Positions 2,666-19,920 of a DNA stretch of 19,920 nucleotides are shown here, one piece after another (within the stretch, counting starts at the first letter, position 1; every line of letters begins with the position of its first letter). Location of the stretch: assembly GCA_038883775.1 (NCBI GenBank), contig JAVZLM010000012.1, positions 1 to 19,920 of the forward strand, given 5' to 3'. The translations under genes and the position numbers were made by a program. Source of the DNA: Candidatus Bathyarchaeia archaeon. GTDB taxonomy: Archaea > Thermoproteota > Bathyarchaeia > Bathyarchaeales > Bathycorpusculaceae. The notes below the pieces were generated by a model. It ran no database searches, had not been told where the DNA came from, and saw nothing but the letters and a program-made list of their open reading frames with translations.

Positions 2666-2673
2666 CCCCCTTT

Positions 2674-3222
2674 TCACTCCAGCAATTTAGTCATTATAAT
2701 TTCATCTATGTACCTGCCGTCTTTGAAATGTTTTCTGGGAATAACCCCTGTCTGCACAAATCCAACCTTCTCGTAAACATGAATTGCGCGTTTGTTGGAT
2801 GCGAAAGCAGAGAGCGTTAAAACCTTTAAACCCATTTTAGAGGCTTGCTCCACTAAAGTTTTCATCATTTCAGTTCCAATGCCAACATCCCTAAACCCAC
2901 TTTTTACTATTATACCCAACACGCCAACATGCCGCTCAAAACCTCGCAGCGGACGAATGTCAGAAGAGGCTATAACCTTTCCCTCAACCTCAGCCACAAG
3001 AAAGAAGATTTCACCCTTCTCAAGGCTGGCAAGGGTTCTAGAAAGCCAGTCGATTTCCTCTTCTCTAGAAACCTTCGCGTTCCTAATTATTTCTGCGCCT
3101 TCATCAACAAGCGAATTAATAAGCTCAAGCAAATCATCCAAGTCTTCCCATTTAGGCGTCCTCAAAACAACCCTTCGCCCATCCCTAGCAGAAAAACTAC
3201 GAATAACCTTTCCAGTTTTCAT
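2674..3222 (-). CDS. GNAT family N-acetyltransferase
   Basis: Acetyl-CoA motif A (FRDVGIGTEMM) and NKRAIHVYEKVGF. Confidence 0.92.
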   Translation of the reverse strand: MKTGKVIRSFSARDGRRVVLRTPKWEDLDDLLELINSLVDEGAEIIRNAKVSREEEIDWLSRTLASLEKGEIFFLVAEVEGKVIASSDIRPLRGFERHVGVLGIIVKSGFRDVGIGTEMMKTLVEQASKMGLKVLTLSAFASNKRAIHVYEKVGFVQTGVIPRKHFKDGRYIDEIIMTKLLE

Positions 3223-3279
3223 AAAACAAACTATGCAAAAGAAGTTTATTTCATTTTTCCATTTCTGAAAAAGACTTAC

Positions 3280-3571
3280 GTTGATGCTTTTGTATACAGC
3301 GTTTTAAGCGACTCACTTCCGGAGAACACTGGTGAAACATAAAATCCAATGGTAATACCCAAATCACCAAAATTACCACAAAGTAAGAAATTAATCTAAA
3401 AGACACAAAAATATTAGCCATATAGCCTACACTAAACAAAACAACTTCCAGCACTCATTCAAAATAAGCCAGAAAAAAGCTCATCTCAAAATCAATCTTT
3501 GCCCGCTCCACACCTCGTGATAACCCCCTTCAGGAAGCTCAGTCAAATCATTTGTATACAAAAGCATAAAC
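3280..3571. repeat. 19-bp inverted repeat pair (18/19 identical) enclosing 254 bp
   Basis: GTTGATGCTTTTGTATACA at 3280-3298 and TGTATACAAAAGCATAAAC at 3553-3571, whose reverse complement is GTTTATGCTTTTGTATACA. Confidence 0.75.
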
Positions 3572-4035
3572 AGAAGCCGCCATCCATATGCAAAAACTTG
3601 CACATAAAAGAAGTAAGCTCATAAGAGATGTCTTATCATAACTAAGCCCATCTCTAAAGTTCATAAAACTCGAAGCATTAACGAAGGGTAACGGCAAATG
3701 CTTGGCATGGAGATTTTCGTCAGTTTTTGTATGAGGCCACGATTAAGTCCATATTTTGGGTTTGTGGGCTTTTTGGAAAAGGCTGAAATTGGCTTCTTTT
3801 TTGTTTTGGGGCTTGAATTTGGCTTAAAGGTTTTCTGTTTTAGAAGAGGGAAGTTGTCGCTTTTAGCCTTAAAACATATTCGATTTTTAACAGATTAGAA
3901 TTTAGTTTTTAATTGACAAAGAGGGCGAATTTTTGGTTAAAATTAGAAAATAAAACAAACGGGTTCTCTTCATTTTATTTCATGTTATTGGTTTTTTCAT
4001 ATTGCCAAATTTGAAATAACCTCTATAATAATTCG

Positions 4036-6324
4036 ATGCCATGTCTTGTGATAGAGGATACTGGAAGGCTGTCATGTTTGCAGGTTAACCCTTTTGGAAA
4101 CGATGTGGAAATAATTGAAAGAAACGTTAATGGAAGAAAAGTTAGGGTAAAGTGGGATTGGGGCAACTTCAAAAGCACCGAAGGCTTTCCAGTAGATGAC
4201 AATCTAATAAACTGGGTTATTGGGCAAGAGCAAGCATTAAAAGAATGCTTCCTATGCCTTGACGAGTGGGTTCATAAGCTTAAGTGGCTTGAAGAGACAA
4301 AATGGTATGAAAGCTGGAGCGACCCAGACAAGCCCAAACCCTCAGCTAAAACAGTCATAAGCCCTGGACCATACCTTCTCCTTTTAGGCGACCCTGGAAC
4401 AGGCAAATCCTTGATTGGTAGAGCCTTGGCTGAAAAGCTTACTCAAGTTTACAAGGAGAACGGCATAAAACTTTTCGACGTGCTCTGTTGGAGAAACCAG
4501 ACGCTGCCAAGCCAACCAAAGATTTCAATTCACAAAGCCGGTGAAGGGAAAAAAATTCTTCAGAGGGAGCAGCTTAAAGAGCTTAAAAGAAAGTTTATCA
4601 CAAAAGTTGGTCTTAAAACATTACAAATCTTTTTGGTTTTAATGGGTCTTTTTCTCATATCCTTAGGCTTTTACTTCCTCTATCAAGCTTGGGTAACTTG
4701 GCAAGCTAACCCCATGTTTTTGGGAGAACCCCTCCAAGAATATTACAATTACAGCTTCATAGACTATTTGATAGGGAAGTTTGTGGGTTTAGTGCCGCTC
4801 ACTTTTATTCCAGGCGGCAGCCTCATTTTCTTCGGAGTTTTCATATGGTGGTTCTCAAAACTTGGCGGCTTAGGCAACCTTAAGGGCATAGCTGGTTCCC
4901 AGCAGACAGACGTTCCAAAACTAATAGTTGACAACTGCTCTGGACATGCGCCTTTTGTGGATGCCACGGGGCATAGAAGCGCCCAACTTTTCGGCTCCAT
5001 AGCATGGGACCCATACCAGACTGGAGGGTTAGGCACCCCAGAACATCAGAGAGTGACAGCCGGAGACGTTCACAGAGCGTCCCTCGGAATCTTATATATA
5101 GATGAGATAAAAAATTTGGACCCAGAAGAGGCTGTAACGCTTTTAACTGTGCTTGAGGATGGGAGATTACCAATCACTATAAGGGGCAGATGGCACGGCG
5201 GAGACACAGCAGCAATGGCTGTTTCTACAGAACCCGTTCCCGCCATCACCTTCCTTGTGGGTGCTGGAAACTTTGACAGCATAAGCCAGATACATCCAGC
5301 CCTTATGGATAGGATTTATGGTTATGGAAAAGTTGTTAGAATGAATAATGACATGCCAAACACCATAGAAAACAGGAGGAAGTATGTACAGTTCATAGCG
5401 CAGGAAGTTAAGCGCTTCAACCTTATCCCTTTCGGCAGAGAAGCCTGCGAAGAAATTGTTGAGGAAGGAAGGCGCAGAAGCAACAAAAAAGATGCCTTAA
5501 CAACAAAGTTTAGACCCCTCATTTCAATCATTAAGACGGCTGCAACCCTAGCTATGAACGAAGGCTGCAAGGTTGTTGAGAGAAGGCATGTGCGAGAAGC
5601 CATAGAAAAACATTGCAAAACAATTCAAAGACAAATTTTGGAACATGAAATCAGCGAGAGAGGCAAACTTTTAGAAATAAAGCCTAAAGGAGCAAAACTT
5701 GGCCAAATTTATGGTTTGGTTGTAGTTAAAGACCCATACAGCGGAGAGATGACTGGAAGCGTCCTATGTGTGAAGGCTAATATGGCGAAGAGAAGCGAAC
5801 TTCCAAGAAATTATCCAATCAAGGGCTATTACAAAGTGACAGGCGTCGCAAAAGGACAAAGCTTCATTGCAGACAGCATAGCCAAAGTTAGAAGCGTCAT
5901 CCTACAAAAATACGGTGTTGACATAGCCCAAGATTATCTAACGCATATTGACTTCGCCCAATCCTATGGCGTGGATGGTCCATCCGCGGGAGTGACTATG
6001 GCTATACTTTTGTGCTCGCTTATTGAAGGCAAACCCATAAGGCAGGATGTGGCTGTCACTGGAGAAATAAACCTGGGCGTCGGCGATTCCATCCAAATTA
6101 CGGCTGTAGGCGGCGTTTATGAGAAGATTAAGGCAGCTGAAGCTTGGGGATTCAAGAAAGTGGTTATTCCCCAAAAGAATTTTGAGCATTCCATAGACGT
6201 TAGAGATTATAAGATTGAGGTTGTGCCAGCAGCTACGCTGGATGATTACTTGAGAGAATGTTTGGTTGAGAAGCCAGCCATAAAAGTTTGGATTCAAAAC
6301 GCTTACAAACGCAAAAAATCCTAA
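4036..6324 (+). CDS. lonB: Archaeal membrane-anchored ATP-dependent Lon protease (LonB); the true start may be slightly downstream (GTG 4048 or TTG 4078)
   Basis: Walker A GDPGTGKS, two TM helices inserted in the AAA+ domain, Walker B ILYIDE, and the Ser-Lys dyad (DGPSAG ... GGVYEKIKAA). Confidence 0.93.
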   Translation: MPCLVIEDTGRLSCLQVNPFGNDVEIIERNVNGRKVRVKWDWGNFKSTEGFPVDDNLINWVIGQEQALKECFLCLDEWVHKLKWLEETKWYESWSDPDKPKPSAKTVISPGPYLLLLGDPGTGKSLIGRALAEKLTQVYKENGIKLFDVLCWRNQTLPSQPKISIHKAGEGKKILQREQLKELKRKFITKVGLKTLQIFLVLMGLFLISLGFYFLYQAWVTWQANPMFLGEPLQEYYNYSFIDYLIGKFVGLVPLTFIPGGSLIFFGVFIWWFSKLGGLGNLKGIAGSQQTDVPKLIVDNCSGHAPFVDATGHRSAQLFGSIAWDPYQTGGLGTPEHQRVTAGDVHRASLGILYIDEIKNLDPEEAVTLLTVLEDGRLPITIRGRWHGGDTAAMAVSTEPVPAITFLVGAGNFDSISQIHPALMDRIYGYGKVVRMNNDMPNTIENRRKYVQFIAQEVKRFNLIPFGREACEEIVEEGRRRSNKKDALTTKFRPLISIIKTAATLAMNEGCKVVERRHVREAIEKHCKTIQRQILEHEISERGKLLEIKPKGAKLGQIYGLVVVKDPYSGEMTGSVLCVKANMAKRSELPRNYPIKGYYKVTGVAKGQSFIADSIAKVRSVILQKYGVDIAQDYLTHIDFAQSYGVDGPSAGVTMAILLCSLIEGKPIRQDVAVTGEINLGVGDSIQITAVGGVYEKIKAAEAWGFKKVVIPQKNFEHSIDVRDYKIEVVPAATLDDYLRECLVEKPAIKVWIQNAYKRKKS

Positions 6325-6408
6325 AATGGCCTTTGGATAATTCTTTTAGCCTTGTAATGTTAAAGAAGTCTATCGTCCATTTAAGATTAGGATAGTAGGG
6401 AATAGGCT

Positions 6409-6837
6409 ATGGTTAGGGAAGTTGATAAGATTGCGCTTCGCAAGTGGCGAAAAAGGGGCTTTTACAGCGAAAATGTTCTTGTAAAACTTTTAACAAAAAA
6501 GGGCTATCATGCAGTTCGGGTTCCAGTAAGCAATCCAAGCCTCAACCCATTGCCAGATGTTATTGCAAGAAAAAACTCTGAAATTTATGCTTTTGAGGTG
6601 AAAAACGCCAGCTATTACGCTTATTTTCCAAAACAGCAAATTGAAAAACTTTTTAGATTTCTTGAAGAATTGATTCCAATGGAAAAAGAGCATAAACATG
6701 CTGTGCTTGCGGCGCATCTTGGAAAAAGATGGATTTTTAAGGAGATTAGCTGGAAAGATTGGGAGAAGGGACGAATTCCTGAAAAGGCAAGAATCCTAAA
6801 AAGGGACAGGGGAAACTTTAACATGGAGGAAAGTTAG
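6409..6837 (+). CDS. hjc: Archaeal Holliday junction resolvase Hjc-family PD-(D/E)xK nuclease
   Basis: Hjc signature G..SE..L...L..KGY...R...S....PDVIA......AFEVK. Confidence 0.8.
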   Translation: MVREVDKIALRKWRKRGFYSENVLVKLLTKKGYHAVRVPVSNPSLNPLPDVIARKNSEIYAFEVKNASYYAYFPKQQIEKLFRFLEELIPMEKEHKHAVLAAHLGKRWIFKEISWKDWEKGRIPEKARILKRDRGNFNMEES

Positions 6838-6841
6838 GCGA

Positions 6842-7531
6842 ATGCCAACGGAAAAAATGGCTGTTTTAGCCTCTAATTTATGTAAGACTTATGAGATAGG
6901 TGATTTGAAAGTTGAAGCTTTAAAAAACGTGAATCTTAAAGTCAAGGATGGCGAATTCACCGTTATAAGCGGTCCTTCAGGTTCTGGAAAAACAACCCTC
7001 TTAAACATTATAGGCGGCATCGACAAACCAACAAACGGAAAGATTGTGGTTTTTGGAAAAAATTTAGGCGTTAAGGATGAAGATTTTTTGGCAAATTTTC
7101 GCAACCGCAAGGTTGGCTTTGTCTTTCAATCTTATAATCTCATTTCAACATTAACCGTTGCTGAGAACATTGCTTTCCCAATGGAGTGGGCAAGAAAACC
7201 AGAAGAACACATAAGAAAACGGGTTGAAGAACTTTTGAACATTGTAGGTTTACAGCATAGGGCAGAACATTTTCCCTCTCAGCTAAGTGGCGGAGAACAG
7301 CAACGCGTAGCCTTTGCCCGTGCCTTGGCAAATGATCCGCCATTGGTTCTTGCTGATGAGCCTACTGGAAATTTGGATTTAAAGACAAGCCTAAAAATTG
7401 TTGAAATACTCCAAAAATTGAAGGAAAGTGGGAAAACAATAATTGTCGCAACTCATGATGAATGCATATTGAAGTTGGCAGATCAAAGGTTATTTTTGGA
7501 AGATGGAAAGCTGGTAAACTCCGTTGAGTGA
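6842..7531 (+). CDS. ABC transporter ATP-binding protein (LolD/MacB family)
   Basis: [36 protein letters not shown] and ATHD. Confidence 0.95.
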
Positions 7532-9401
7532 AACTTTTTTCTCAATAAACGATTTATTTCGAAGAAAACTTCAAACAAGCTTAATAGTCATAAGTTTAAC
7601 ATTATGCGTTGCCTCAACACTTTTCCTGCTACTTTTCTGTGATAAAATAGGATTTGGAATATCTTTAATGGCTGAAGGAACATTGACCACGGGCTTATCG
7701 ATAGCCTTATCCCGCTTCATAATATTCATTGGAACCCTAATTTTCATTATTGGAGCCTTAATTGTTTCTTTCATGGTTTTTGTCATGATGTCTCAGAGAA
7801 TTAGAGATATTGGGTTAATGAAGGCTGCTGGCTGTCCAAACGACCTAATTTTCGGATATCTCATGACCGAACTCCTCATCGTAACCCTTCTCGGCTGTTT
7901 TCTAGGAGTTGTTTTGGGTATAGTGGCAGATTTTGCCATAACAAACATTTTAACCACTTCTACTTTCCAGATTTCGCAGAAGCCAATCAATTTTTGGATT
8001 GCTCTATTCGTGTTTGCAGTATACTTTATTCTCGCATTAATTTTCGGAACTAAGCCAATATTGGATACAACGAAAATTGAAACATCAAAAGCCTTGTCGC
8101 CAACCTACTATTTAGGCATGAGCAAAGAGCCCAGCTTCAAAATCGTTTCAAAAATAGGCTTAACCATAAAAATTGCCATGCGAAGCTTGTTCCGCCGTAA
8201 GTTGGCAACAATACGCATCCTATCATGCTTAACGGCAGCATTTATTCTAGTCACGGTGGCTGTTGCTGGTGGAATAATCGCTGACCAAACAACAAAAAGC
8301 TGGGTTGAAAGGGCAATTGGCAAAGACATAGTTGTTATCGCTCATCAAGAAATGTGCAATCAATATGGTTTGTTGCTTTCAAAGTTTCATAAAGCAGAAG
8401 AAACCGTCCAATTTGACTATACAGATAATAAATACCTGTTATCAGATGAGCTTCTCAACCAATTAAGTCAAACATCTGAAATTGCAAGTATTGACATGCG
8501 CCTAATCGTTGAGGCACGAATAAGAGAAGTTCCCGGTTACATTCTTAACCCTGAAACTGGTGGCGCAACTCCCATTGGTGACAGTCGTGAAGGCGTATCT
8601 TTAATAGTGGGTGTTGAACCAGAAAAAGTGCTCGCTGATTGGTTTTTAGATGGAGAATTCCTTAAAAAGGATAAATCATGGGAAGCTGTGATAGGTGATT
8701 CAATAGCCCATAAAATGTTCACTTTGCCATTAAAGCAAGAACTGCGACTGTTTGGCCAGTCAGATAGATTCTTTAACATTACCGGCGTTTGTGTAGATCC
8801 ATTAAACAATGGAAACGTTACATACGTGCCTTTAAAGGATTTACAAAATGTTACGGGCATACCAAAAATTAACATAATATTGGTCAGGATTGACGCTTTA
8901 AACAATCGAGCAGAAATTTTGAATAGGATAAGGGCGAATGTTACCAAAATAAATTCGAACTATGAGGTTTTTGAGCTTAACCTAATCTTAAGAGAGAACA
9001 TTGACTTTCTGGGTTATGTTTGGTCAATCATCCTCTTTTTGCCCTTCTTCTCTTTGGCATCCGCTTCTGTATGTTTAATATGTTATATGATGCTCATCTT
9101 AACTGAACAGCGCCAAGAATTCGGTGTTTTAAGAGCTTTAGGGGCGAAACCCAAAACCGTTTTAAAAATTGTTTCATGGCAAAGCCTTGCGGTCTTACTA
9201 TCCAGTTATGCTCTTGGAATAGCCTTTGGAATAATCATAACTCTGCTGATTTTGGTTCAAGAACCATTAGTCACAAGCCTAACCATAATCGAAATAGCAG
9301 GATGGCTTTCAGCGACCTTGGCTGTAATCTTCATTTTCAGTTTATACCCAGCCATAAAATTTTCAAAGAAATCCCTCATCGAAATTATGGCGCAATCCTA
9401 A
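7524..9401 (+). CDS. ABC transporter permease, FtsX/MacB-like, with two permease domains
   Basis: Two FtsX-domain motifs (QRIRDIGLMKAAG and EQRQEFGVLRALGA) and one large extracytoplasmic domain. The GTG start overlaps the end of the ATPase gene. Confidence 0.92.
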   Translation: MSETFFSINDLFRRKLQTSLIVISLTLCVASTLFLLLFCDKIGFGISLMAEGTLTTGLSIALSRFIIFIGTLIFIIGALIVSFMVFVMMSQRIRDIGLMKAAGCPNDLIFGYLMTELLIVTLLGCFLGVVLGIVADFAITNILTTSTFQISQKPINFWIALFVFAVYFILALIFGTKPILDTTKIETSKALSPTYYLGMSKEPSFKIVSKIGLTIKIAMRSLFRRKLATIRILSCLTAAFILVTVAVAGGIIADQTTKSWVERAIGKDIVVIAHQEMCNQYGLLLSKFHKAEETVQFDYTDNKYLLSDELLNQLSQTSEIASIDMRLIVEARIREVPGYILNPETGGATPIGDSREGVSLIVGVEPEKVLADWFLDGEFLKKDKSWEAVIGDSIAHKMFTLPLKQELRLFGQSDRFFNITGVCVDPLNNGNVTYVPLKDLQNVTGIPKINIILVRIDALNNRAEILNRIRANVTKINSNYEVFELNLILRENIDFLGYVWSIILFLPFFSLASASVCLICYMMLILTEQRQEFGVLRALGAKPKTVLKIVSWQSLAVLLSSYALGIAFGIIITLLILVQEPLVTSLTIIEIAGWLSATLAVIFIFSLYPAIKFSKKSLIEIMAQS

Positions 9402-9450
9402 AAAGGAAAAATTTCAACATATTTTGAAAGCTTGATGGAGGTGAAGGCTT

Positions 9451-9720
9451 ATGGCTCAGAAATTTCAAGGAACAATCTTGAACTATCGTGTTGGTCCAAA
9501 AACTCAAAAATCAAAGGAATGTATAATTCAATTCGACCACGTAAAATCTTTTTCTGAAGCAGGCAGGCTTATAGGACGTAAAGTTGTTTGGAGAAATGAG
9601 AAAAATAAGTTTGTTGGGAAAATAGTGGCGTTACACGGCAGGAAAGGGCTTGTGAGAGTAAGGTTTAGGAGGGGTTTGCCAGGTCAAGCTTTAGGAACAA
9701 AAGTTGAGTTAACTGGTTAA
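9451..9720 (+). CDS. rpl35ae: 50S ribosomal protein L35Ae (eL33)
   Basis: Basic 89-aa protein with G.I..YR.G..TQ and GKIVALHGRKGLVRVRFRRGLPGQALG. A GGAGGTGA RBS lies upstream. Confidence 0.95.
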   Translation: MAQKFQGTILNYRVGPKTQKSKECIIQFDHVKSFSEAGRLIGRKVVWRNEKNKFVGKIVALHGRKGLVRVRFRRGLPGQALGTKVELTG

Positions 9721-9731
9721 ATATGCCATTT

Positions 9732-10406
9732 TCACCAGTTTTTTAACAAAGTTTTATCAAACATGACAGCCATCCAAGAATTAACCATCATTATCGCTAT
9801 AGCCCTAAAGAAACCCCACTTAATCCAGCGCCTCGCAGAGGTTGGAACCACTTTTTTAGTGATGACTACAAACTTGCCAACTGAGGCTAATCTTTTGGCG
9901 ATATGCTGGTCTTCTGCTACGGGGTTTTCCCAATAACCGCCTATGCTGTTGAAGGCGCTTTTTCGCATAAAAATTATTGAACCCGAAACTCTGGGCTTGC
10001 AAGATATGGGTACTTTTTCAAATAATTTCGAAACTAAAGCTGTTGTTGTTAGAAACAGTGTATGATACCAAGAGCCATCATAAGGGTATAACCGAAATGT
10101 TCCGCCAGAAACCCGCTTGTCTTGCATAACTTTTTCAATTTCAGAAACCAAATCTTCAGTTAAGATTGTGTCTGCATCTAATTGTATGAGAATTTCATTA
10201 TTAGCCAATTTTGAACCAATATTTCTTGAAATTGGAATGTTCTTGTTAGAAATTATAACGGCAGCTCCAAAATTTTTCGCTATTTCCACAGTCTTATCCT
10301 TGCTCCCACCGTCAACCACTATAACTTCATACTTCCGCAAATGCCGCAATACGATAGGTAGTAACTTTTCCTCGTTTAATGTTGGAATAATGATGCTTAC
10401 GCCCAT
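9732..10406 (-). CDS. Glycosyltransferase family 2
   Basis: SIIIPTLNEE, VVDGGSKDKT, a DAD motif, AED and TSARRW. Confidence 0.92.
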   Translation of the reverse strand: MGVSIIIPTLNEEKLLPIVLRHLRKYEVIVVDGGSKDKTVEIAKNFGAAVIISNKNIPISRNIGSKLANNEILIQLDADTILTEDLVSEIEKVMQDKRVSGGTFRLYPYDGSWYHTLFLTTTALVSKLFEKVPISCKPRVSGSIIFMRKSAFNSIGGYWENPVAEDQHIAKRLASVGKFVVITKKVVPTSARRWIKWGFFRAIAIMMVNSWMAVMFDKTLLKNW

Positions 10407-10528
10407 TCACCCACTTCAAAATAAAGTTTTGGAAATCTAAAAATAAAATTTTAGCCAAATTCAAAAGATTTATGCATAAAACATCACAAATGTGTGATAT
10501 TTCCTTTCCATTTTTATTTTTACTAACT

Positions 10529-11569
10529 TTATTGTGTCACAACAATTCTTATAGGGTTTCCTATTTTCTTTTCTAGCATTTCCATTCCATAATTCACATC
10601 TTCAAGCTGCACTCTGTGAGTGATAGAAGTTGAAAGGTCTATTTTCTTAGAGTCAACAAGATTAACTAGCTGGATCATTTCTGATTCTAAATGGTCATTT
10701 ACACCGATTATCTCTATTTCCTTGCCTATTATGGTCTTATATGGTGAAACAGTTATTTCTTCAGAACCTATGCCTACGATTAGCATTCGGCCACCCTTTC
10801 CTACACAGTTGATAGCTTCTTCAATTGTGAACGTTGATCCTACAAAGTCTAAAGCGACATCAGAAAGTTTTCCATTAGTTATCTCTTTTATTCTCTCCAT
10901 GGGCTTCTCTTTAATGGCATTCACAACCTCGTCTGCACCTACTTTTTTTGCAATTTTTAGTTTCTCTTCTGAAATATCTACTGCAATCACTTTTCCAGCC
11001 CCAAAAACTTTCGCAGCCAATTGAACAGCGTGAATTCCAACTCCGCCAACACCATAGATAACAACTGTTTCCCCAATGTTTACTCTTCCCCTCCTTAAGG
11101 CATGGAAAGCTGTTGAAACAGCACATCCAATTATGGCTCCTTGTTCAAAAGGAATTGAGTTAGGTAATTTTAACACATTTCTAACTGGAACCTTTATAAA
11201 TTCAGCGAAACCTCCATCTACATCCTTTCCTATCATCTTGTAGTGTTCGCAGAGATTATCCTTTCCTGTTATGCAAAAACTACATTTCCCGCAACTTAAT
11301 ACATAGTGAACACAAACCCTGTCGCCTTTATCAACGGTCCACACATGGGGACCTACTTCGCTTATTATACCCGCTATTTCATGACCCAATATTATAGGCA
11401 GTTTCCCAACGGGGCTAATGCCTTCTCGGTAATTTATATCTGAATGGCATATGCCACTCGCTTTAACATTAACTAAGACGTCCTCCGCATCTAAGGTAGG
11501 AATCGGAACATAGTCTAAACGCAATTTCTCTCCTATCTTATGCAGCTGTGCTGCCTTCATCTTTGCCAT
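10529..11569 (-). CDS. Zinc-dependent medium-chain alcohol dehydrogenase
   Basis: GICHSD, GHE, structural-zinc motif CGKCSFC...C and Rossmann GVGGVG. ATG at 11569 is preferred. Confidence 0.93.
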   Translation of the reverse strand: MAKMKAAQLHKIGEKLRLDYVPIPTLDAEDVLVNVKASGICHSDINYREGISPVGKLPIILGHEIAGIISEVGPHVWTVDKGDRVCVHYVLSCGKCSFCITGKDNLCEHYKMIGKDVDGGFAEFIKVPVRNVLKLPNSIPFEQGAIIGCAVSTAFHALRRGRVNIGETVVIYGVGGVGIHAVQLAAKVFGAGKVIAVDISEEKLKIAKKVGADEVVNAIKEKPMERIKEITNGKLSDVALDFVGSTFTIEEAINCVGKGGRMLIVGIGSEEITVSPYKTIIGKEIEIIGVNDHLESEMIQLVNLVDSKKIDLSTSITHRVQLEDVNYGMEMLEKKIGNPIRIVVTQ

Positions 11570-11749
11570 CAATTCCACTAATCCCAATTGAATAAATGAG
11601 AGCAATACCTTAAATAATTATCCAAGCCCTAAAACCCTTGAAACGTTTTAAAAGCTTGTGGTTTACGCTTAACGCTTTAATAGAAAAATTATAGGTTAGT
11701 TGTTTGTAATATTCCATGGACCTTTTTAATTGCGTAAGTATTTAACAAC

Positions 11750-12404
11750 TTACGCGTAGGCTGGCAGCTGATTTATGAAATCTTGAAATTGAAGAATTGG
11801 AATTATAGGCACTTCATCATAAAACTTGAACTTTCCGGGAACAAGCGACAAAACTGCTGGAACAATTTTTGCATTATTCCAAGAGGCAAATTCAAATTTT
11901 CCAACAAGAGTTGACAAAGATTCAGCTAAAGCTGCTGTTCTTTTCTTTTGTTCTTGGGCAATTTTCTTTAAAGCGGATGAATACATTCCGTAACGCCAAT
12001 GTTTACAGTCAACGCATAGGATTATGGGCTTTTTGTAACCCACAACATCTATCTCCCACTTTTCACCAGAATGTCTAAACCACAAATTCTGTTTTACAAC
12101 ATAACCATTCCGTTCAAGAATTACAGAAGCTATACCTTCAAATTCTCTCCACTCAAGAAAACCGCATACTGTTTCAAAGTCGACGCCTAATTCTATGGCA
12201 TAAACAGTCAATTTAAGACGTTGAACGGCATCGGCCTCCACAAAGCTTTCTCTCAGATAAATAAGCCCTTGATTTTGCAGTTTTCTAAGCAATTTTCAGC
12301 TATTTGTGATGAATTTGTACATCATTTTTAACTATTTCTTTTGAAACTGAACCATTCTTAGTCAATTTTAATATGGAAATGATCAAATTCATTTCAACAT
12401 TCAA
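11750..12404 (-). pseudogene. Mrr-cat/NERD-like PD-(D/E)xK endonuclease with a frameshifted N-terminus (pseudogene or assembly error)
   Basis: The intact frame 12292-11750 has WREFE, EIDVVG and CVDCKHW. A TTG at 12404 after an AGGAGA RBS gives MNVEMNLIISILKLTKNGSVSKEIVKNDVQI, then reaches TAG at 12302-12300, out of frame with the rest. Confidence 0.7.
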
Positions 12405-12616
12405 TTAAGATTCTCCTAAAATATACAGAAAACAAACAAAAAAATTTTACATTTTACTAATGCTTAAAAATTTTTCCATAAACATAATAAATGCTTCCAT
12501 CGAGCTCTCTTTTCATTTAATTTTCATGTAAACCATAATAAGAAACTTCCGCAAAACTGAAACATACGGTAAGACTCAAATGGAAGGGTATCTTCATAAA
12601 ATTTGAAGGTGTAAAT

Positions 12617-13339
12617 TTGAAGGAAAAAGTTATTGGAATATTGGGTGGAATGGGTCCAGAAGCCACCGCTGACCTATTCTTTAGGATAATTAGGGAAACC
12701 CCAGCCAAAAAAGACCAGGAACACCTTAGAATAATTGTGGATAATAATCCAAAGATACCCGATAGAACCGCAGCAATATTAGGCCGAGGACCAAGCCCGA
12801 TGCCAGAGATCATTAAGACGGCTAAGAATTTGGAGAAGGCTGGGGCTGATTTTATAGCGATGCCTTGCATAACCGCTCATCACTACTATGAAGAAATAAA
12901 AAAGAGCGTAAAAATTCCCATATTAAACATGGTTGAGTTAACAGCGCAAACCATAAGCGAAAATTTTCCTAAAGCGAAAAAGGCTGGTCTTTTGGGGACA
13001 ACAGGAACTGTTAAGAGCAAAATGTTTGATAAATCACTAAACAAATTCAACATTAAAATGATTTATCCATCAGAAAATTTTCAAAAAATGGTTATGGAAG
13101 CCATATATGATTACATTAAAGCTGGAAAAATCATAGAAGGCAAAAAAATTGTGGTTAATGTGGCTAAACATCTTATTGATTTGGGTGCTGACGTAATAAT
13201 TTGTGGATGCACAGAAACGTCGCTTGTGTTAAAAAATGGAGACTTAACCAAGCCTGTGGTTGACCCTATGCAAATATTGGCTCAAACCGCCGTGAAAGTT
13301 GCCTTAGGAAAAATGCCAATTCCAAAAGATCAAGATTGA
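12617..13339 (+). CDS. Aspartate/glutamate racemase family (PLP-independent, two-cysteine)
   Basis: IGILGGMGPEAT, IPDRT, PCITAH and GCTE. Confidence 0.92.
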   Translation: MKEKVIGILGGMGPEATADLFFRIIRETPAKKDQEHLRIIVDNNPKIPDRTAAILGRGPSPMPEIIKTAKNLEKAGADFIAMPCITAHHYYEEIKKSVKIPILNMVELTAQTISENFPKAKKAGLLGTTGTVKSKMFDKSLNKFNIKMIYPSENFQKMVMEAIYDYIKAGKIIEGKKIVVNVAKHLIDLGADVIICGCTETSLVLKNGDLTKPVVDPMQILAQTAVKVALGKMPIPKDQD

Positions 13340-13430
13340 ATTTAACTGGCATAATGTAGACTGTTTAAATAAGGCTTATTGAAACCTAAATAACAATTTA
13401 ACAAACCCCAGAAGATGGAAGGAAACTCGA

Positions 13431-14720
13431 ATGTTTGAGGATTATATTTCAAAAACTCAGAAATCCAAAGCCCTCTACGAAAGAGCTAAAAGGGTTCTTC
13501 CAGCAGGCGTTTCATATGCCATAAGATATTTTGAGCCATACCCATTTTATGTTGCCAAAGCAAAAGGAAGCAAACTTTACGATGTTGATGGAAATTGCTA
13601 TATAGACTTTTGGCTTGGACACACAGCACTCATACTCGGTCACAGTCCACCAGCAGTGGTGAAAGCTGTTAAAAGGCAAATTGAAAATGGCACCCATTAT
13701 GGTGTGGCTCATGAGCTAGAAATTGCCTTGGCAGAACAAGTCACAAAAATGATTCCAAGCGCCGAAATGGTTCGCTTCACCAACTCGGGAACAGAAGCCA
13801 ACATGTACGCCATACGCCTAGCAAGGGCATACACCAGCAAAAACAAAATCGCAAAATTCGAGGGAGGATGGCATGGAGGCTACGATGCGCTTCACGTAGC
13901 TGTCAAACCACCCCTAGACGTTCCAGAATCTGCAGGTTTAACGAAGGGAGCACTTCAGGATACAATAATTTTGCCCTATAACAACCTTGAAGGAGTTAGA
14001 GAGAAACTCAAAAATGAAGAAGTTGCCGCCATCCTTATTGAACCAGTCCTCGGCGTTGGCGGAGGCGTATTCGCAGAAAAAGAATTCCTTAAAGGACTTA
14101 AGGAATTATGCGACGAAAAAGGAGCACTGCTTATCGTTGATGAGGTGATTACGGGATTCCGTTTGGCTCCAGGTGGAGTTGAACAATATTTTGGCGTAAA
14201 ACCTGACATAACGGTTCTTGGAAAAATTTTGGGAGGAGGCTTCCCAATAGGAGCCTTCTGCGGACCAACAGAAATAATGGAAAGGGTAGACACGCTTCGC
14301 TATCAAAGACCACAATACTCTTTTCACGGCGGAACTTTTGCTGCAAACCCAATAACTATGACCGCTGGTTTGGCAACACTGAAAATTCTGGAAGATGGCA
14401 AGTTAATAAATAGACTGAACAAGCTTGGAGACAAAATAAGAGCGCAACTAAGCGAAATCTTTGAGGCAAAAGGCATAACTGTACAAATTGCCGGAACGGG
14501 CTCCATCTTTAACGTTCATTTTACAAGAGAAGAATTGAAGGATGTTAGTGCTGTCTTTAGAGCTGACAGAAAGAAACTTGCAGATTACCACGCGAGGTTA
14601 ATTGCTAATGGCGTATTCTTTCTACAAACCCATAACGGCACATTGTCCACAGCCCACACGAAAGCCGACATAGAAAAACTGTTTTCTGAAACAGAAAAAT
14701 ACGCTAAAAGCATAGCATAA
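13431..14720 (+). CDS. Glutamate-1-semialdehyde 2,1-aminomutase-like class III aminotransferase
   Basis: FTNSGTEA, DEVITGFR, PLP lysine in LGKILGGGFPIGA, and GTFAANP. The closest family is HemL, but the substrate is not established. Confidence 0.85.
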   Translation: MFEDYISKTQKSKALYERAKRVLPAGVSYAIRYFEPYPFYVAKAKGSKLYDVDGNCYIDFWLGHTALILGHSPPAVVKAVKRQIENGTHYGVAHELEIALAEQVTKMIPSAEMVRFTNSGTEANMYAIRLARAYTSKNKIAKFEGGWHGGYDALHVAVKPPLDVPESAGLTKGALQDTIILPYNNLEGVREKLKNEEVAAILIEPVLGVGGGVFAEKEFLKGLKELCDEKGALLIVDEVITGFRLAPGGVEQYFGVKPDITVLGKILGGGFPIGAFCGPTEIMERVDTLRYQRPQYSFHGGTFAANPITMTAGLATLKILEDGKLINRLNKLGDKIRAQLSEIFEAKGITVQIAGTGSIFNVHFTREELKDVSAVFRADRKKLADYHARLIANGVFFLQTHNGTLSTAHTKADIEKLFSETEKYAKSIA

Positions 14721-14722
14721 AA

Positions 14723-15343
14723 TTAGCCCTTCTCTTTAAGCATCTTTTCAGCCCTTTTCAAATCCATGGGCGTATTCACATTGAAAAAACTCTTAAGCTC
14801 TGGATCCAACTGCTTCAAAACAAGGGTGGAAACATAGCGGATGCCGCGAAGCCTATCCACCATTGCCTGCATATTTAATTTTCCCTCTTTCAAAGCCTTT
14901 TCAGCAGCTTCCAAAGCTGGTTTTGTGTGATAAACTGCTTGTAATGGTTCTATGTAGCCGTTTGGCCATCGGGGGATAACAGCGTTTTTGTTTGGGCATA
15001 AATCTAACAGAAGCGAAAGAATCTCTCTAGAAAGTAGCGGCGTATCGCATGGAAGCAGAAGCGCATACTCGTTTCTCGCTTCTTTGAAGCCTTTTAAGGC
15101 GCCAACCAATGGACTTTGCACATCTCCTTCATCAACGGAAATCCTAACATTTGAGCCCACAATTTTTGCATAGCTTTCTACTTGCGTCTTAGAGCTGACA
15201 ACAACTATTTTTTCATCCACAACGTTGCCAACCGCGTCTATTACATGCCTTATGAGGGGTTTATTTGCCAAAAACAATAATCCCTTGTCTTGTCCAAATC
15301 TTCTGGAAAATCCGCCAGCAAGAATTATGGCTGACTTTTTCAA
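14723..15343 (-). CDS. mobA: Molybdenum cofactor guanylyltransferase
   Basis: ILAGGFSRRFGQDK, LPCDTP, EPLQAVY and FFNVNTPMDL. Confidence 0.9.
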   Translation of the reverse strand: MKKSAIILAGGFSRRFGQDKGLLFLANKPLIRHVIDAVGNVVDEKIVVVSSKTQVESYAKIVGSNVRISVDEGDVQSPLVGALKGFKEARNEYALLLPCDTPLLSREILSLLLDLCPNKNAVIPRWPNGYIEPLQAVYHTKPALEAAEKALKEGKLNMQAMVDRLRGIRYVSTLVLKQLDPELKSFFNVNTPMDLKRAEKMLKEKG

Positions 15344-15481
15344 TAATAATGCGTCTCCAATTTTACTTTTATTGAGAATCTCTTCTGTTCTATAAGTCTT
15401 ATGTATGAAATATTACAAAAAAGAAATACAGTATATTACTTTTATTCACCCAAAATCTCTTACGGAAGGTTGACTATAGCC

Positions 15482-15601
15482 ATGAACTCAGAGCTTAAAG
15501 AATTGAACCGCATAATATGCCGGCAATGCGACGAGAAAGATTATGAAAAATGCAAAAACTGCAAAGTCTATCGGCTCATAAACAAAATAGCAACGCAATA
15601 A
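15482..15601 (+). CDS. Small 39-aa CxxC-x7-CxxC putative zinc-binding protein
   Basis: MNSELKELNRIICRQCDEKDYEKCKNCKVYRLINKIATQ, with GGAAGG upstream. The longer ORF start at 15401 runs through AT-rich promoter-like DNA. Confidence 0.65.
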   Translation: MNSELKELNRIICRQCDEKDYEKCKNCKVYRLINKIATQ

Positions 15602-15603
15602 AT

Positions 15604-16380
15604 TTATGGCATGCTTTCTATTTTATTCGCCATATCATCCAGAATCTTCGTGAATGGATGTTCAGGCTTTTCGTTAACAAAGATCATGTTTCCTTCAGCC
15701 TTCAAAACATCACAGAAACAGGGTATCACACCCAAGAGGGGAGCCTTATACATTTCTTGAAGTTTGGCTTGAACTTCCTCCTTTTTCATCTTAGAAGAAA
15801 CATCCAACAAGGCTTTATTAAGAACTATCTCGGTTTTCTTCTCAAACAAGTCATAAAGTTCCACAAGCATACGCCTAGTTCCGTCCACGTCTGACCTATC
15901 CAAAGTTGTAGCAACAATAATCAAATCAGCACTGACAATGGCGTTTATGGATGAATATTGCAGCCCTGGACTGGTGTCAAATATTAGGTAGTCAAAACCT
16001 TTCTCGCCTAAAAGAGAATTTCTGAGAGCCAAAAGCCTCCCTAAGGCACGCATTTCCCATTTCCTATCCTTAGCAGAGATATCCCTTATGGCTTCAGTCG
16101 CTGGATTGGCTAATCCCACAAAAAGTTCGCCCTTATTTTGAAATCTTTCGCTTAAGTTTATCAAAACCTTCTCTATTCCGCAAGTGCCATTCAAATAATC
16201 ATTAAGCCAGCATTCTGCCTTCTCAATTTTGAGGATTGTGGCTAGGCTTGGGGCTCTAAAGTCGAGGTCTAATAAGCAGACTTTTTTGCCGCGTTTGATA
16301 AGAGTTGCGGCCAAGTTCAGGGAAAGGAGGGTTTTTCCTGTTCCACCTTTGTAGGAGTGGACGGCTATTATCTTACCCAA
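15604..16380 (-). CDS. MinD/ParA family ATPase
   Basis: Deviant Walker A KGGTGKT, A' motif DLDFRAPSL and Walker B DTSPG. There is no obvious C-terminal membrane-targeting tail. Confidence 0.92.
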   Translation of the reverse strand: MGKIIAVHSYKGGTGKTLLSLNLAATLIKRGKKVCLLDLDFRAPSLATILKIEKAECWLNDYLNGTCGIEKVLINLSERFQNKGELFVGLANPATEAIRDISAKDRKWEMRALGRLLALRNSLLGEKGFDYLIFDTSPGLQYSSINAIVSADLIIVATTLDRSDVDGTRRMLVELYDLFEKKTEIVLNKALLDVSSKMKKEEVQAKLQEMYKAPLLGVIPCFCDVLKAEGNMIFVNEKPEHPFTKILDDMANKIESMP

Positions 16381-16386
16381 AGTTTA

Positions 16387-16758
16387 TCACCCTTGACCTT
16401 CCCTATCCACAAAGAAATAGGCTTTCCTCCCCTTCCTCTCCTTCTTCAAATATCCCATAATAACAAGCTGGTTTAGGTAGGCACTCTCCACAGCCCTAGC
16501 CCTATGCGTTTGTTGGGCAATTTCTTCTGCCGTTGCTCTGCCAAGTCTACAAACTGTCATTGCGGTTTTTCTAAGATGGTCTGGCATGGAAAGTAACGTC
16601 ATAACATCTAAAGGGGCTTCAGGCATTATTTGCGTGTCTTTTTTGCTGTGTTTTTGAAGTTCAATCATAACCTCCATTTTCTCGTTTAGCCTTTCAAGAT
16701 TTTCTCTAATTTTCTCCAATATTTGAAGGGGTTTTTTCCCAAAAACTTGGTTATCCAC
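16387..16758 (-). CDS. Coiled-coil + winged-helix DNA-binding protein
   Basis: N-terminal heptad-like LEKIRENLERLNEKMEVMIELQK and C-terminal wHTH ATAEEIAQQTHRARAVESAYLNQLVIMGYLKKERKGRKAYF. It ends 6 bp before the ParA/MinD start. Confidence 0.85.
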   Translation of the reverse strand: MDNQVFGKKPLQILEKIRENLERLNEKMEVMIELQKHSKKDTQIMPEAPLDVMTLLSMPDHLRKTAMTVCRLGRATAEEIAQQTHRARAVESAYLNQLVIMGYLKKERKGRKAYFFVDREGQG

Positions 16759-17083
16759 TATTGTCCCCTTTTTAGTGTTTTACTTGTGTACAATAGTTTT
16801 AAGAAAAAAGCATTTATTAAGTCTTACGAAACACTTATAATGATTCACAAAACAAACACAAACTACTTACCATAAACACCATTCTTAACCCAAAAAACTC
16901 CTGAAAAAACAATAAACAATAACATAAAAGCGAACAATGCCAGATTGTATCCTGTGGCGCATAGTGCCATTTGCTCAAACATCTTGATCATTAGACTAGA
17001 TAAAGTTATGAAATAAAAAGCGTATTTCATTTCGAAAAATATTACAGAGTAAGAAAACATAACCTTAAAAAGTTAGAGGATTA

Positions 17084-17380
17084 TTAGTAGGGTACTGGCA
17101 TTTTGTTTCTGGCTTCTTCCACAATTGGCAAAACCTGTTTGAGCTCTCGGAAGTATTTGAGCACCGTTATGCCCCTTTGGGTTATGGCGTAAACGACTCT
17201 TCGCTTTCCAATAGTTCTTTCTTCCACCAAGTTCTGCTTTATCAGAAAATCTAAATATTCCTTTAAAACGCTGCAGTTAACATTAGCCTTATACATTATG
17301 TGCGTCAGCTTCAATGGACCACGGTGGGCTAACACTTTAAGAATGTCTATATACATTTCAAGTTTGGAACGTCTCATCAT
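17084..17380 (-). CDS. Winged-helix transcriptional regulator (HTH_45-like)
   Basis: RRSKLEMYIDIL...THIMYKANVN...YLDFLI...YAITQRG pattern. Confidence 0.9.
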   Translation of the reverse strand: MMRRSKLEMYIDILKVLAHRGPLKLTHIMYKANVNCSVLKEYLDFLIKQNLVEERTIGKRRVVYAITQRGITVLKYFRELKQVLPIVEEARNKMPVPY

Positions 17381-17411
17381 CCAAACCTCTTGGCGATATT
17401 TTCAACCTCTT

Positions 17412-17425
17412 TATATAAAGCTTTT
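17412..17425 (-). promoter_or_regulatory. BRE/TATA promoter of the HTH_45 gene
   Basis: The minus strand reads AAAAGC-TTTATATA about 30 bp upstream of the start codon. Confidence 0.65.
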
Positions 17426-17463
17426 ATGGATTCAAACTATGTCTTTTTCCTATTTACTCTGCG

Positions 17464-17646
17464 TTAGTAGCTCCTTTTCCTCTGTGCTCTTATTAACACG
17501 TTTATTCTATTTTGGAAAGCTGTGACCATGTCATCTAGCAATATTTTTTGCAATTCTGCCGAAAGCCCCTTAATGTTTTCCTTGAGCACCTTAGCCATCT
17601 TAACCTCCAAATCCTTCCTCTGTTTTAATGTTAAGTTTTGTTTCAA
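17464..17646 (-). CDS. Small basic helical hypothetical protein (60 aa)
   Basis: TTG at 17646 is preceded by GGAGGA. The product MKQNLTLKQRKDLEVKMAKVLKENIKGLSAELQKILLDDMVTAFQNRINVLIRAQRKRSY is amphipathic. Confidence 0.75.
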   Translation of the reverse strand: MKQNLTLKQRKDLEVKMAKVLKENIKGLSAELQKILLDDMVTAFQNRINVLIRAQRKRSY

Positions 17647-17873
17647 GGATTTTCCTCCAAGACACTGCAAAAGGAATAGTCATCTGCTATTTAACTAACT
17701 TATGAACCTAGAATATAGATTGAAAATCCATATCAAAAATTTCGTGTTTAGCTATTTTCGAAACTTTTCAAATGAGTTACTATGGTCAAATTAAGTTTTA
17801 TGAAAACATTTTATATTGAAAAATATCATAGTTTTATCCAAACCACCTATGTAATAGAGGAAGTCGATTGTAG

Positions 17874-18422
17874 GTGTATGCGAAATTAAAAGATCGCTTT
17901 AGAAAAACCTTAAACATAATTAAAACGAAGAAGACTACTTTATCAGTCTTTTTCATATGGAGCCTGACTATTGCATTCGTCGTAATTAAGTCATATTGGT
18001 TACTATATGTACAAAATCCTGTTCTTATCGAAAAAAGAATATGGGCGTTTAGTCCTTTAGGCTACAGCGTATGGCTTCCTCACCTTTTTATAGAGGATTA
18101 TATTATCATCATCATCGTAAGTTTCGCGGCCGGAGTTTTTCTAGAAGACCTAAGCGATATTTTCTATTCTTGGTTCGCGTCCAACATTTTGTCTTTTGTT
18201 TGTTCCACTCTTTATATTTTCTTTTACGTATGGATTTTCGTTGGGGTAGGAGATTACTTCTCTAGTTTAGGCATCGCAAATGAATTGATTCCTTGGGTTT
18301 TTCTTTACGTGATGATCAATATATTGTGGATGTACCTTCCGCTAGTCATATGTTTTACTTTGCTGGCCAGTTTTGTTGGTGCGCTTTTAGGGTCGAGATT
18401 TTTTCCTTTGCGGGATATTTAA
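17874..18422 (+). CDS. Hypothetical integral membrane protein (about 4-5 TM)
   Basis: 182-aa ORF with several long hydrophobic stretches and no motif that I recognise. Confidence 0.75.
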   Translation: MYAKLKDRFRKTLNIIKTKKTTLSVFFIWSLTIAFVVIKSYWLLYVQNPVLIEKRIWAFSPLGYSVWLPHLFIEDYIIIIIVSFAAGVFLEDLSDIFYSWFASNILSFVCSTLYIFFYVWIFVGVGDYFSSLGIANELIPWVFLYVMINILWMYLPLVICFTLLASFVGALLGSRFFPLRDI

Positions 18423-18580
18423 TCTCCCTAACCGTTTAGCTCCCTTTTTATAACCTCATGCTGAAATTCATTTTTGTTGATGTGCTTTTTGTACCTTACA
18501 AAAATTATGTCCACTACCAAATTTTAAAGCATTCAACTCTAATGGAGAACGTTTTTATTTTTGGTTTTACCTTATTTTTT

Positions 18581-18644
18581 TGCCGGATGATGAGAAGGCA
18601 TTAGCTTGACGTATGGATGAAATTTCAGAGTTACTCAGACGGCA
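18581..18644 (+). ncRNA. Box C/D guide sRNA (dual guide)
   Basis: Stem TGCCG; G; box C ATGATGA (18587-18593); guide GAAGGCATTAGC; D' TTGA (18606-18609); CGTA; C' TGGATGA (18614-18620); guide AATTTCAGAGTTACT; variant D box CAGA (18636-18639); stem CGGCA. The geometry is that of a K-turn. Confidence 0.8.
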
Positions 18645-18711: not shown

Positions 18712-19920
18712 TTAAGAAGGCATCTTTTTTCCTAGCCTAAATAGTAGAGTTGCTGAGCATATTGCAGCAATTAATGATAAGATAACCGCAGCCACTGTGC
18801 CTAGGAAGTTCTGGAATGTTGTCTGTGGAAGACTTTCTACATAACCTTCGATGTCGTCAACATTAACTTTGAGTGTTCCAATGTCAGTTTTAATCGTGGT
18901 TACGTTGCCATCTATGCTTTCAATGATTCCTTCTAACTCTCCTAAGGCGGTTTTTATCAAAGTAATGTTGCCATCAATTAATGTAACTCTTAATCCTAAA
19001 GCGTCTATAGAGCCTTGAATTGGACCAAGCAAGGTTCTTATTTCTACGGTTGTTCCATTTATACTTGTCAATGTGGCGTTTATTGAAGTCAAGTTCGCAT
19101 TTATCATTCCAATGTCAGTTTTAATCGTGGCTATGTCGCCAGTTATGGTTTGAAGATATGCGTTCCAGTCGATTAGAGTCGAGCTTATGTCGAAACTGTC
19201 CATGGACGTCCCTCTATATAGAACGTTAATATCTTCAGAATATGATTCGATGGAAACTATTAGGCAACATGATGTGGCTTCTATTGGAATCTCAAATTGG
19301 GCAACATATAAACCCGAATCCAGTAGTATGGCATCAAAATTCATGAAGAGAAATTCCCCATCAGCTTTTCGATACCATAGCTTCAGTGGAATTGTATCGG
19401 TTAAGTTGATTGGTGCTCCTTTGTAAGAAAATTGCAGATAAACGTCAGCAATTTCGCCTGGAAAGTGGATTTCGCCTATATCTAATTTTACATCTAGCTT
19501 TTCAATGGTGGGAACATCAACATAAACATAAATTGGAATGCTCATTGGAAGCTCTGAAGCCATAAGATAAATAGCGCTGAAATATCTTCCCGGAGAAGCA
19601 TTGGAAGGCACATTTATTGTGACATTGATTGTCTGCATTCCCATTTCAGGTATTTCCTCTACCGTGACTGGTTCAATGTTCACAGGGAAGTAGAAAGCGC
19701 TGGAAAAGGTTACGTTTGTAAGTTTGACTCCTGTGGATAGGTTAAATGTTATGGAGTTTGATTTGCCTGCTGGAATCATGACGTGCGCTGGAGATGCTGG
19801 GTTAATATTGATCATTTTGACGTTGCATGATAGGTCTTCTGGGAATCTTGAGCCGTTAAATAGCACATTATGAAGCAAAACCGTGTACAGTTCGGGAAGG
19901 GGTGGAGCTTCGGGAATTGC
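18712..19920 (-). CDS. C-terminal part of a large cell-surface protein (beta-rich domains, TIKTDIG-repeat stalk, C-terminal TM anchor); 5' end lies outside the window
   Basis: The frame is open to 19920 (AIPEAPPLPELYTVLLHNVLFNG...). It has several NxT/S sequons, I.G...TIKT..G repeats, a hydrophobic helix and a basic tail RLGKKMPS. It may be the tail of an S8-type peptidase, but no catalytic domain is visible. Confidence 0.85.
   Translation of the reverse strand, partial: AIPEAPPLPELYTVLLHNVLFNGSRFPEDLSCNVKMININPASPAHVMIPAGKSNSITFNLSTGVKLTNVTFSSAFYFPVNIEPVTVEEIPEMGMQTINVTINVPSNASPGRYFSAIYLMASELPMSIPIYVYVDVPTIEKLDVKLDIGEIHFPGEIADVYLQFSYKGAPINLTDTIPLKLWYRKADGEFLFMNFDAILLDSGLYVAQFEIPIEATSCCLIVSIESYSEDINVLYRGTSMDSFDISSTLIDWNAYLQTITGDIATIKTDIGMINANLTSINATLTSINGTTVEIRTLLGPIQGSIDALGLRVTLIDGNITLIKTALGELEGIIESIDGNVTTIKTDIGTLKVNVDDIEGYVESLPQTTFQNFLGTVAAVILSLIAAICSATLLFRLGKKMPS
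18876..19130. repeat. Exact 24-bp direct repeat inside the CDS, 231 bp apart
   Basis: TTCCAATGTCAGTTTTAATCGTGG at 18876-18899 and 19107-19130, both encoding TIKTDIG. Confidence 0.9.

Follow-up and report, generated by a model that had tools for sequence, protein, structure and literature searches.

The window analysed here, a 19,920-nt stretch of contig C12 of a Bathyarchaeia MAG, contains at 18581..18644 (+) a 64-nt feature that we read, with a probability of about 85%, as an archaeal box C/D sRNA gene that is transcribed independently and has two predicted methylation targets in 23S rRNA. The feature, delimited by reading the sequence and by its homologues, is far beyond chance and, judged from sequence, is a genuine box C/D sRNA gene that would most likely direct two sugar methylations in the large rRNA. 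A first-pass annotation had already proposed a dual-guide box C/D sRNA at this position, and this identity is borne out by the conservation of the gene, the covariation of its stem, its promoter element and the presence of the core protein genes. The evidence consists of the anatomy of the gene, its conservation, the stem covariation, the promoter element, the complementarity of its guides to the 23S rRNA of relatives and three core protein genes.

The gene begins with the 5′ half of a terminal stem, TGCCG (UGCCG; 18581–18585), which pairs with the 3′ half, CGGCA (18640–18644), in a 5-bp stem (UGCCG/CGGCA) that is kept in the MFE fold. A single spacer base, G (18586), separates the stem from box C, ATGATGA (AUGAUGA, consensus RUGAUGA; 18587–18593). 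The 12-nt D′ guide, GAAGGCATTAGC (RNA: GAAGGCAUUAGC; 18594–18605), has its predicted target in the helix 70/71 region of 23S rRNA and is followed by box D′, TTGA (UUGA, consensus CUGA; 18606–18609), a variable D′–C′ loop, CGTATGG (CGUAUGG; 18610–18616), and a degenerate box C′, ATGAAAT (AUGAAAU; 18617–18623). The 12-nt D guide, TTCAGAGTTACT (RNA: UUCAGAGUUACU; 18624–18635), has its predicted target in the helix 69 loop of 23S rRNA and leads directly into box D, CAGA (18636–18639), a variant that keeps the C and GA of CUGA and does not match the exact consensus. All elements on the plus strand that characterize an archaeal box C/D sRNA, namely box C, box D, an internal D′/C′ pair and a terminal stem, are present. 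The off-consensus boxes D (CAGA) and D′ (UUGA) and the degenerate box C′ were weighed as points against the reading of the gene and its targets.

Guide spacers of about 12 nt are the archaeal norm, and with AUGAAAU taken as box C′ both spacers of the window copy measure exactly 12 nt. The first-pass annotation correctly described both guide cores, the terminal stem, a perfect box C and CAGA as a variant D box. It was also right that a D′/C′ pair exists, but its register for box C′ was 3 nt off, as AUGAAAU lies 3 nt downstream. The earlier register, ATGGATGA, was rejected: it leaves a 15-nt D spacer, and relatives with a D′–C′ loop of 3–4 nt (L043, L048, L106 and L121) fit the AUGAAAU register only. 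A canonical GUGAUGA in L082 and L132 occupies the same alignment columns as AUGAAAU in the window. Because the short-loop and canonical-C′ relatives fix the register in this way, box C′ is placed at 18617–18623.

A BRE/TATA-like promoter element (AGAACG + TTTTTATT) is located at 18546..18559 (+), its centre about 26 nt upstream of the sRNA's 5′-end. When 76 distinct Bathyarchaeia loci were aligned on the sRNA start, a block of this kind was found at a fixed position from −35 to −22, with T at −29 to −26 in 58–71 of the 76 loci and an A-rich stretch at −34 to −32. The sRNA lies between two convergent ORFs, 17874–18422 (+; 182 aa) and 18712–19878 (−; 388 aa), for which no Pfam family was matched and which tblastn placed beside none of 29 homologous sRNA loci. 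A search of Rfam at gathering threshold returned no C/D family for the sRNA. The sole Rfam match in the window at this threshold is a tRNA-His (GUG anticodon) at 478–553 (−). Elsewhere in the window, a 98-aa ORF at 17084–17380 (−) encodes a winged helix-turn-helix domain (PF14947, E = 1.2e-17).

A strict scan of the 1.69-Mb genome for four boxes, 12-nt spacers and a terminal stem retrieved only the window locus and a sister copy at C2:107545–107613, while the reversed-genome control gave 0 matches. With a 76-nt region as BLAST query and a threshold of E ≤ 1e-8, homologues were found in 41 of 60 family- and order-level relatives. Of 301 genomes from across the class, 114 contain an exact guide-plus-box pattern (UGA, 4 N, UCAKAGUUAC, N, CNGA), and the same pattern written backwards had 0 matches. 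BLAST, the pattern search and the matches listed in a scan of public genomes together provided at least 77 distinct Bathyarchaeia copies. All 77 parse to the layout of the window copy, with invariant or near-invariant boxes and guide cores; as the parse pattern fixed the spacer length at 12, the 12-nt spacers in 77/77 show only that the copies fit. The retention of the boxes in relatives, which the first-pass annotation had named as a check, is evident from these copies. The D guide core, TCAGAGTTA, is invariant in 77/77 copies, and positions 4–11 of the D′ guide are complementary to their target in every copy (one pair turns G-U). By contrast with these guides, the D′–C′ loop is free in sequence and ranges from 3 to 23 nt among the 77 homologues, L051 carrying a 23-nt hairpin insert there.

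The terminal stem covaries: GCCG/CGGC is replaced by GGCC/GGCC or AGCC/GGCU, and all five pairs have double-sided changes in some relatives. These compensatory changes come from about six sequences and therefore represent few events. In alignment A1, 97.2% of cells are paired (96.9% in helix 1) and six of the seven pairs show double-sided changes; none of 500 shuffles reaches the observed values, and slid controls pair at 5–57%. Contigs from two runs labelled metatranscriptomic, which are probably DNA, cover the conserved block 18575–18644 only. Two RNA runs contained 0 reads or contigs at the sRNA locus and are uninformative on expression either way. These data bear on the possibility that there is no functional RNA gene here at all, the boxes and the complementarity being due to chance or the block being a protein-coding or regulatory DNA element. 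A 48-codon ORF, 18458–18604 (+), overlaps the 5′ half of the sRNA and could be taken in favour of such a reading, but conservation ends exactly at the sRNA ends and the promoter block, indels in the loop are not multiples of three, the terminal stem covaries and the reversed genome yields no match. With flanking ORFs that lack a Pfam family and are absent beside homologues, this explanation is extremely improbable. A further point for a genuine sRNA gene is that the same two guides recur in swapped positions at at least six loci of other Thermoproteota among the matches listed, which was counted as independent recurrence.

The boxes that form the kink-turns vary among the 77 copies. Box C is ATGATGA in 57 of the 77 distinct homologues, and its variants differ at position 5 or 7 only. 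Box D is CGGA in 44 copies, CAGA in 17, CTGA in 12 and CCGA in 4, such that C and GA are invariant and position 2 alone varies (G 44, A 17, U 12, C 4; n = 77); 61 of the 77 copies have CGGA or CAGA instead of CUGA. The first C of box D pairs with G6 of box C in 77/77. Box D variation and the substitutions at position 5 of box C together give nine forms of the kink-turn 3b–3n pair, and the free variation at box D position 2 over 77 natural copies provides a useful data set on this pair. In the internal motif, box D′ is TTGA in 67/77 copies with an invariant GA, and UGA is invariant in box C′. Position 1 of D′ and position 6 of C′ covary (U-A 67, U-G 4, G-C 2, C-G 1, unpaired 3). In the window copy, the U of UUGA pairs with A at C′ position 6, replacing the consensus C-G pair.

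Neither the MAG assembly of the window nor any of four same-genus genomes (0/4) contains a 23S gene, and the guides were therefore checked on the rRNA of family- and order-level relatives. All eight full-length 23S genes from these relatives hold AGTAACTCTGA, followed 25 nt downstream by CCAAATGCCTTG. The complementarity that the first-pass annotation had proposed from a TACK 23S sequence is true of these actual 23S genes, both sites being present in 8/8. The D guide forms 11 contiguous Watson–Crick pairs with AGTAACTCTGA, flush to box D, in each of the eight. Five genomes have their own sRNA, 16S and 23S; in all of them the top site of the D guide in 16S + 23S is helix 69, and all ten of guide positions 2–11 form Watson–Crick pairs. 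Between 0 and 3 of 500 shuffled D guides performed as well in these five own-rRNA tests, which upholds helix 69 as the target of this guide. For the D guide, N+5 falls on the second A of GUAAC within the helix 69 loop.

For the D′ guide, the best site in the same five relatives is located 25 nt downstream of the D target, in agreement with the position first suggested for it, though the match is less complete. The duplex has 9 of 12 pairs, with 9 of 10 Watson–Crick at positions 2–11 and a conserved A–A mismatch at +3, and the third A of CCAAAUG lies at its N+5 position. Shuffled D′ guides reached the D′ score somewhere in 16S + 23S in 34–54 of 500 cases, and the D′ match alone is not significant; chance is nonetheless unlikely to account for it, because the site is so near the D target. 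Where the guide changes at +3 among the 77 copies, the change is mostly from A to U, gaining a pair.

It could be that the RNA is a genuine C/D sRNA in which only the D guide, at helix 69, methylates, while the D′ guide is an orphan or serves as a tether or chaperone arm, the +3 mismatch blocking methylation. The incomplete duplex would fit this, as its A–A mismatch is beside the target (two nt away) and is kept in most of the 77 copies; so would the rate at which shuffled guides equal the D′ score and the non-consensus sequences of box D′ (UUGA) and box C′ (AUGAAAU). However, the D′ core varies no more than the D guide over the 77 copies, its best site is just 25 nt from the D target in 5/5 genomes, and natural variants such as GGTATTTG and GCATTTAT restore the +3 pair. 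The D′ guide also adjoins the D box in the same register in permuted relatives. On balance, a single active guide seems unlikely, and two predicted targets remain the preferred reading.

Other targets were considered as well. None of the 36 tRNAs found overlaps a site with ≤2 mismatches to either guide. A possible mRNA target at window 11414–11427, with a 12/12 match to the guide, was judged to be chance; it is in the same sense as the guide and therefore cannot pair with it. Over its 14 nt, this stretch has the same sequence as the final part of box C together with the D′ guide, and is located within a minus-strand alcohol-dehydrogenase-like ORF, where it falls in codons for REGIS.

The mechanism envisaged for this RNA is that of the established archaeal C/D RNP. 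By analogy with it, we infer transcription of the sRNA, its assembly into an RNP and the two methylations. L7Ae would bind the terminal C/D kink-turn and the internal C′/D′ K-loop, and a Nop5 dimer with two copies of fibrillarin would assemble on the RNA. The 12-nt D guide would then base-pair with nascent 23S rRNA at the helix 69 loop, allowing fibrillarin to 2′-O-methylate the A1913-equivalent (yeast Am2256), and the 12-nt D′ guide would pair 25 nt downstream, on the helix 70/71 strand, leading to methylation of the A1938-equivalent (yeast Am2281). Given how near each other the two sites are, a further effect of the RNP may be to keep the intersubunit-bridge region together during folding. 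All three core proteins of box C/D sRNPs, L7Ae, Nop5 and fibrillarin, are encoded in the genome. The fibrillarin gene (C10:13826–14506; 329.6 bits) and the Nop5 gene (C10:14604–15278; 268.4 bits) are adjacent, and there are two L7Ae-family matches (C7:32215–32487 and C3:113689–113964).

The proximity of the two sites also raises the question of whether a C/D-type RNA of this kind acts mainly as an assembly chaperone that bridges helix 69 and helix 71, with methylation being incidental. Such a role would be in line with the fact that helix 69 and helix 71 guides are coupled, across lineages, in three arrangements (A1938-type, permuted and G1945-type), and with the case of Pyrobaculum, in which, according to excerpts of PMC6009581, about 45% of sRNAs target within 100 nt and a folding role has been argued. 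Against this, the register of the guides to the D/D′ box is strictly kept and the N+5 nucleotide is constant, and tethering alone needs no such register; in addition, the fibrillarin gene is intact. A chaperone in the first place is hence improbable, and we retain guided methylation as the main function of the predicted sRNA.

The predicted nucleotides can be related to E. coli and yeast positions through published numbers, with the rRNA stretch between the mapped yeast, E. coli and archaeal positions presumably free of indels. In PMC2794176, yeast Am2256 (snR63) lies two nucleotides ahead of Ψ2258 in the helix 69 loop, and Ψ2258 corresponds to E. coli 1915; yeast Am2256 therefore equates with E. 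coli A1913. Yeast A2280m and A2281m (snR13) and G2288m (snR75) are found in helices 70/71, as given in excerpts of PMC4174444. The two predicted archaeal sites are 25 nt apart, which is also the difference between 2281 and 2256. These positions support the D target as the probable equivalent of E. coli A1913 and yeast Am2256, and the D′ target as that of A1938 and Am2281. The first-pass annotation had named the same four positions, and the N+5 sites and the 25-nt offset agree with the published yeast numbers.

Compared with the sites of yeast snR63, snR13 and snR75, the predicted archaeal nucleotides coincide at offsets of 0, +25 and +32, that is 2256, 2281 and 2288, the +32 site being that of Desulfurococcales and Asgard relatives. 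The mechanism is shared, since both systems use a fibrillarin/Nop1 C/D RNP, whereas yeast employs three separate snoRNAs and single dual-guide RNAs would cover such sites here. Common descent with snR63/snR13 and convergence on conserved rRNA predict the same guide sequence, because this sequence is dictated by the target, and the two are not separable on that basis. Among Rfam families, SNORD45 (RF00279) is the only one that aligns with the sRNA end to end, sharing box positions and the overall C/D layout. Membership in this family was rejected, as the score of 24 bits (E = 0.018) falls short of the gathering score, 42, and the likeness stems from the boxes plus a handful of guide letters.

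Relatives of the guide pair are found beyond the Bathyarchaeia. The 81 matches at the 80 loci listed from the scan of public genomes were sorted into four groups. At least 42 of the matches listed have the layout of the window copy and belong to Bathyarchaeia or to entries named 'uncultured archaeon'. The guides are swapped, with the helix 69 guide at D′ and the AAGGCAUU guide at D, in at least six matches (Thermofilaceae, Conexivisphaera, Ca. Geocrenenecus and Ca. Nitrosomirales). In at least six others (Desulfurococcales, Nitrososphaerota, Njord-, Baldr- and Odinarchaeota), the helix 69 guide at D is accompanied by a CCGGCAA-type guide at D′. The remaining group, at least 27 matches among those listed, comprises mostly bacterial chance matches and a few archaeal variants. 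When compared with the 23S rRNA of their own genomes, the CCGGCAA-type guides of two genomes pair over 13/13 nt in Baldrarchaeum and over 9 nt in Desulfurococcaceae. The N+5 nucleotide of this guide is a G, 32 nt past the helix 69 target, and 2256 + 32 = 2288. Of 151 Asgard genomes sampled, 11 have the exact pattern (control 0); nine of these 11 carry a G1945-type partner guide and one an A1938-type partner.

The presence of the helix 69 guide together with a helix 71 guide, sometimes permuted, in other Thermoproteota and some Asgard archaea is the less expected part of these results. Guides for helix 69 and for helix 70/71 occur together repeatedly, in several arrangements and lineages, and all three nucleotides specified coincide with methylated positions of yeast. 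One could speculate that the helix 69 guide marks an ancient lineage of dual-guide C/D RNAs that always couples helix 69 to helix 70/71 (A1938/G1945), is older than the split between Thermoproteota and Asgard, was rearranged through circular permutation and the replacement of guides, and gave rise to the three eukaryotic guides (Am2256, Am2281 and Gm2288). As the sole fully canonical four-box locus here, the gene could then be one of the guide RNAs that make up a minimal core set. This scenario is tentative, and we regard it as rather unlikely. For the wider question of ancient versus convergent guide RNAs, the helix 69 case offers one concrete, testable instance, because guides from Bathyarchaeia, other Thermoproteota and some Asgard archaea all single out one helix 69 nucleotide, and their partner sites coincide with Am2281 or Gm2288.

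Helices 68, 69 and 71 are archaeal 2′-O-methylation hotspots, and predicted sites of hyperthermophiles are dense in helix 69 around E. coli A1912 (excerpts of Dennis et al., 2015, PMC4644070); the same hotspot list is repeated in a review (excerpts of PMC7994747). With these hotspots already in print (PMC4644070), the first-pass annotation rated the novelty of the targets too highly. In pan-archaeal comparisons, exact sites of methylation are rarely conserved between orders and, a few exceptions aside, not shared beyond a genus, according to the excerpts of Lui et al. (2018; PMC6009581), where about 45% of Pyrobaculum sRNAs are also reported to aim both guides within 100 nt, a role in folding is argued and circular permutation of sRNA genes is described. 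The window sRNA shares with the archaeal hotspot dual-guide sRNAs, as far as the excerpts of PMC4644070 and PMC6009581 describe them, a length of about 60 nt, the C/D′/C′/D order, 12-nt guides and the N+5 rule, as well as neighbouring target sites (helix 69 near A1912 and helix 71), an independent promoter and guide permutation. It differs from those described in these excerpts in its Bathyarchaeia host, a box D that is mostly CGGA or CAGA, a C′ box AUGAAAU and a D′ box UUGA. Since elements of this kind, their target region and their way of evolving are all established, the sRNA belongs to a well-known class of genes, and an identical guide pair may already have been catalogued for Pyrobaculum, Sulfolobus or other model species. 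No paper was retrieved when the full-text literature was searched for Bathyarchaeota in combination with sRNA, fibrillarin or box C D. The present analysis adds a confidently predicted, previously unannotated guide RNA gene to the Bathyarchaeia and predicts two specific ribose methylations in the region of intersubunit bridge B2a.

The contig of the window, C12, is 86–87% identical over about 16 kb to C2:107680–123628 of the same MAG, with an sRNA at the syntenic place. Window 465–17733 plus 18546–18644 correspond to C2:107545–123628; past window position 17733, only the promoter block and the sRNA match C2 (93% over 18546–18644). Two segments are specific to the window relative to C2, namely ~10450–11742, with the alcohol-dehydrogenase-like ORF, and ~17734–18545, with the 182-aa ORF. 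The sister sRNA, L040 at C2:107545–107613 (−), has two differences, at guide position 12 (C for U) and in box D (CGGA for CAGA), and carries the same promoter block as the window copy. As the two contigs are syntenic twins at 86–87% identity and the estimated contamination of the MAG is 5.1%, C12 may derive from a co-binned sister population, to which the window copy of the sRNA may then belong, or may represent a large diverged duplication.

Additional partial copies, in which only the C′–guide–D–stem half is kept, were found in the Bathyarchaeia loci L075, L078 (second match) and L083. They are joined on the upstream side to GTTAYTCATCC; its reverse complement, GGATGARTAAC, is a motif that is often located 3′ of the full-length sRNA gene at other loci. 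These partial copies may be rearranged or decayed duplicates. The idea that the gene (with its sister copy) is the only C/D sRNA in the genome was discarded, as a looser guide-to-rRNA scan gave 27 matches against 11 in the control; other, less canonical sRNAs therefore probably exist in this genome. One candidate from the loose scan, at C8 ~108,090–108,170 (−), has degenerate boxes (GAUGACG ... AUGA ... GAUGAUU ... CUGA), a terminal GGAC/GUCC and one guide with a 10-nt match to the 23S rRNA of a relative near position 2624.
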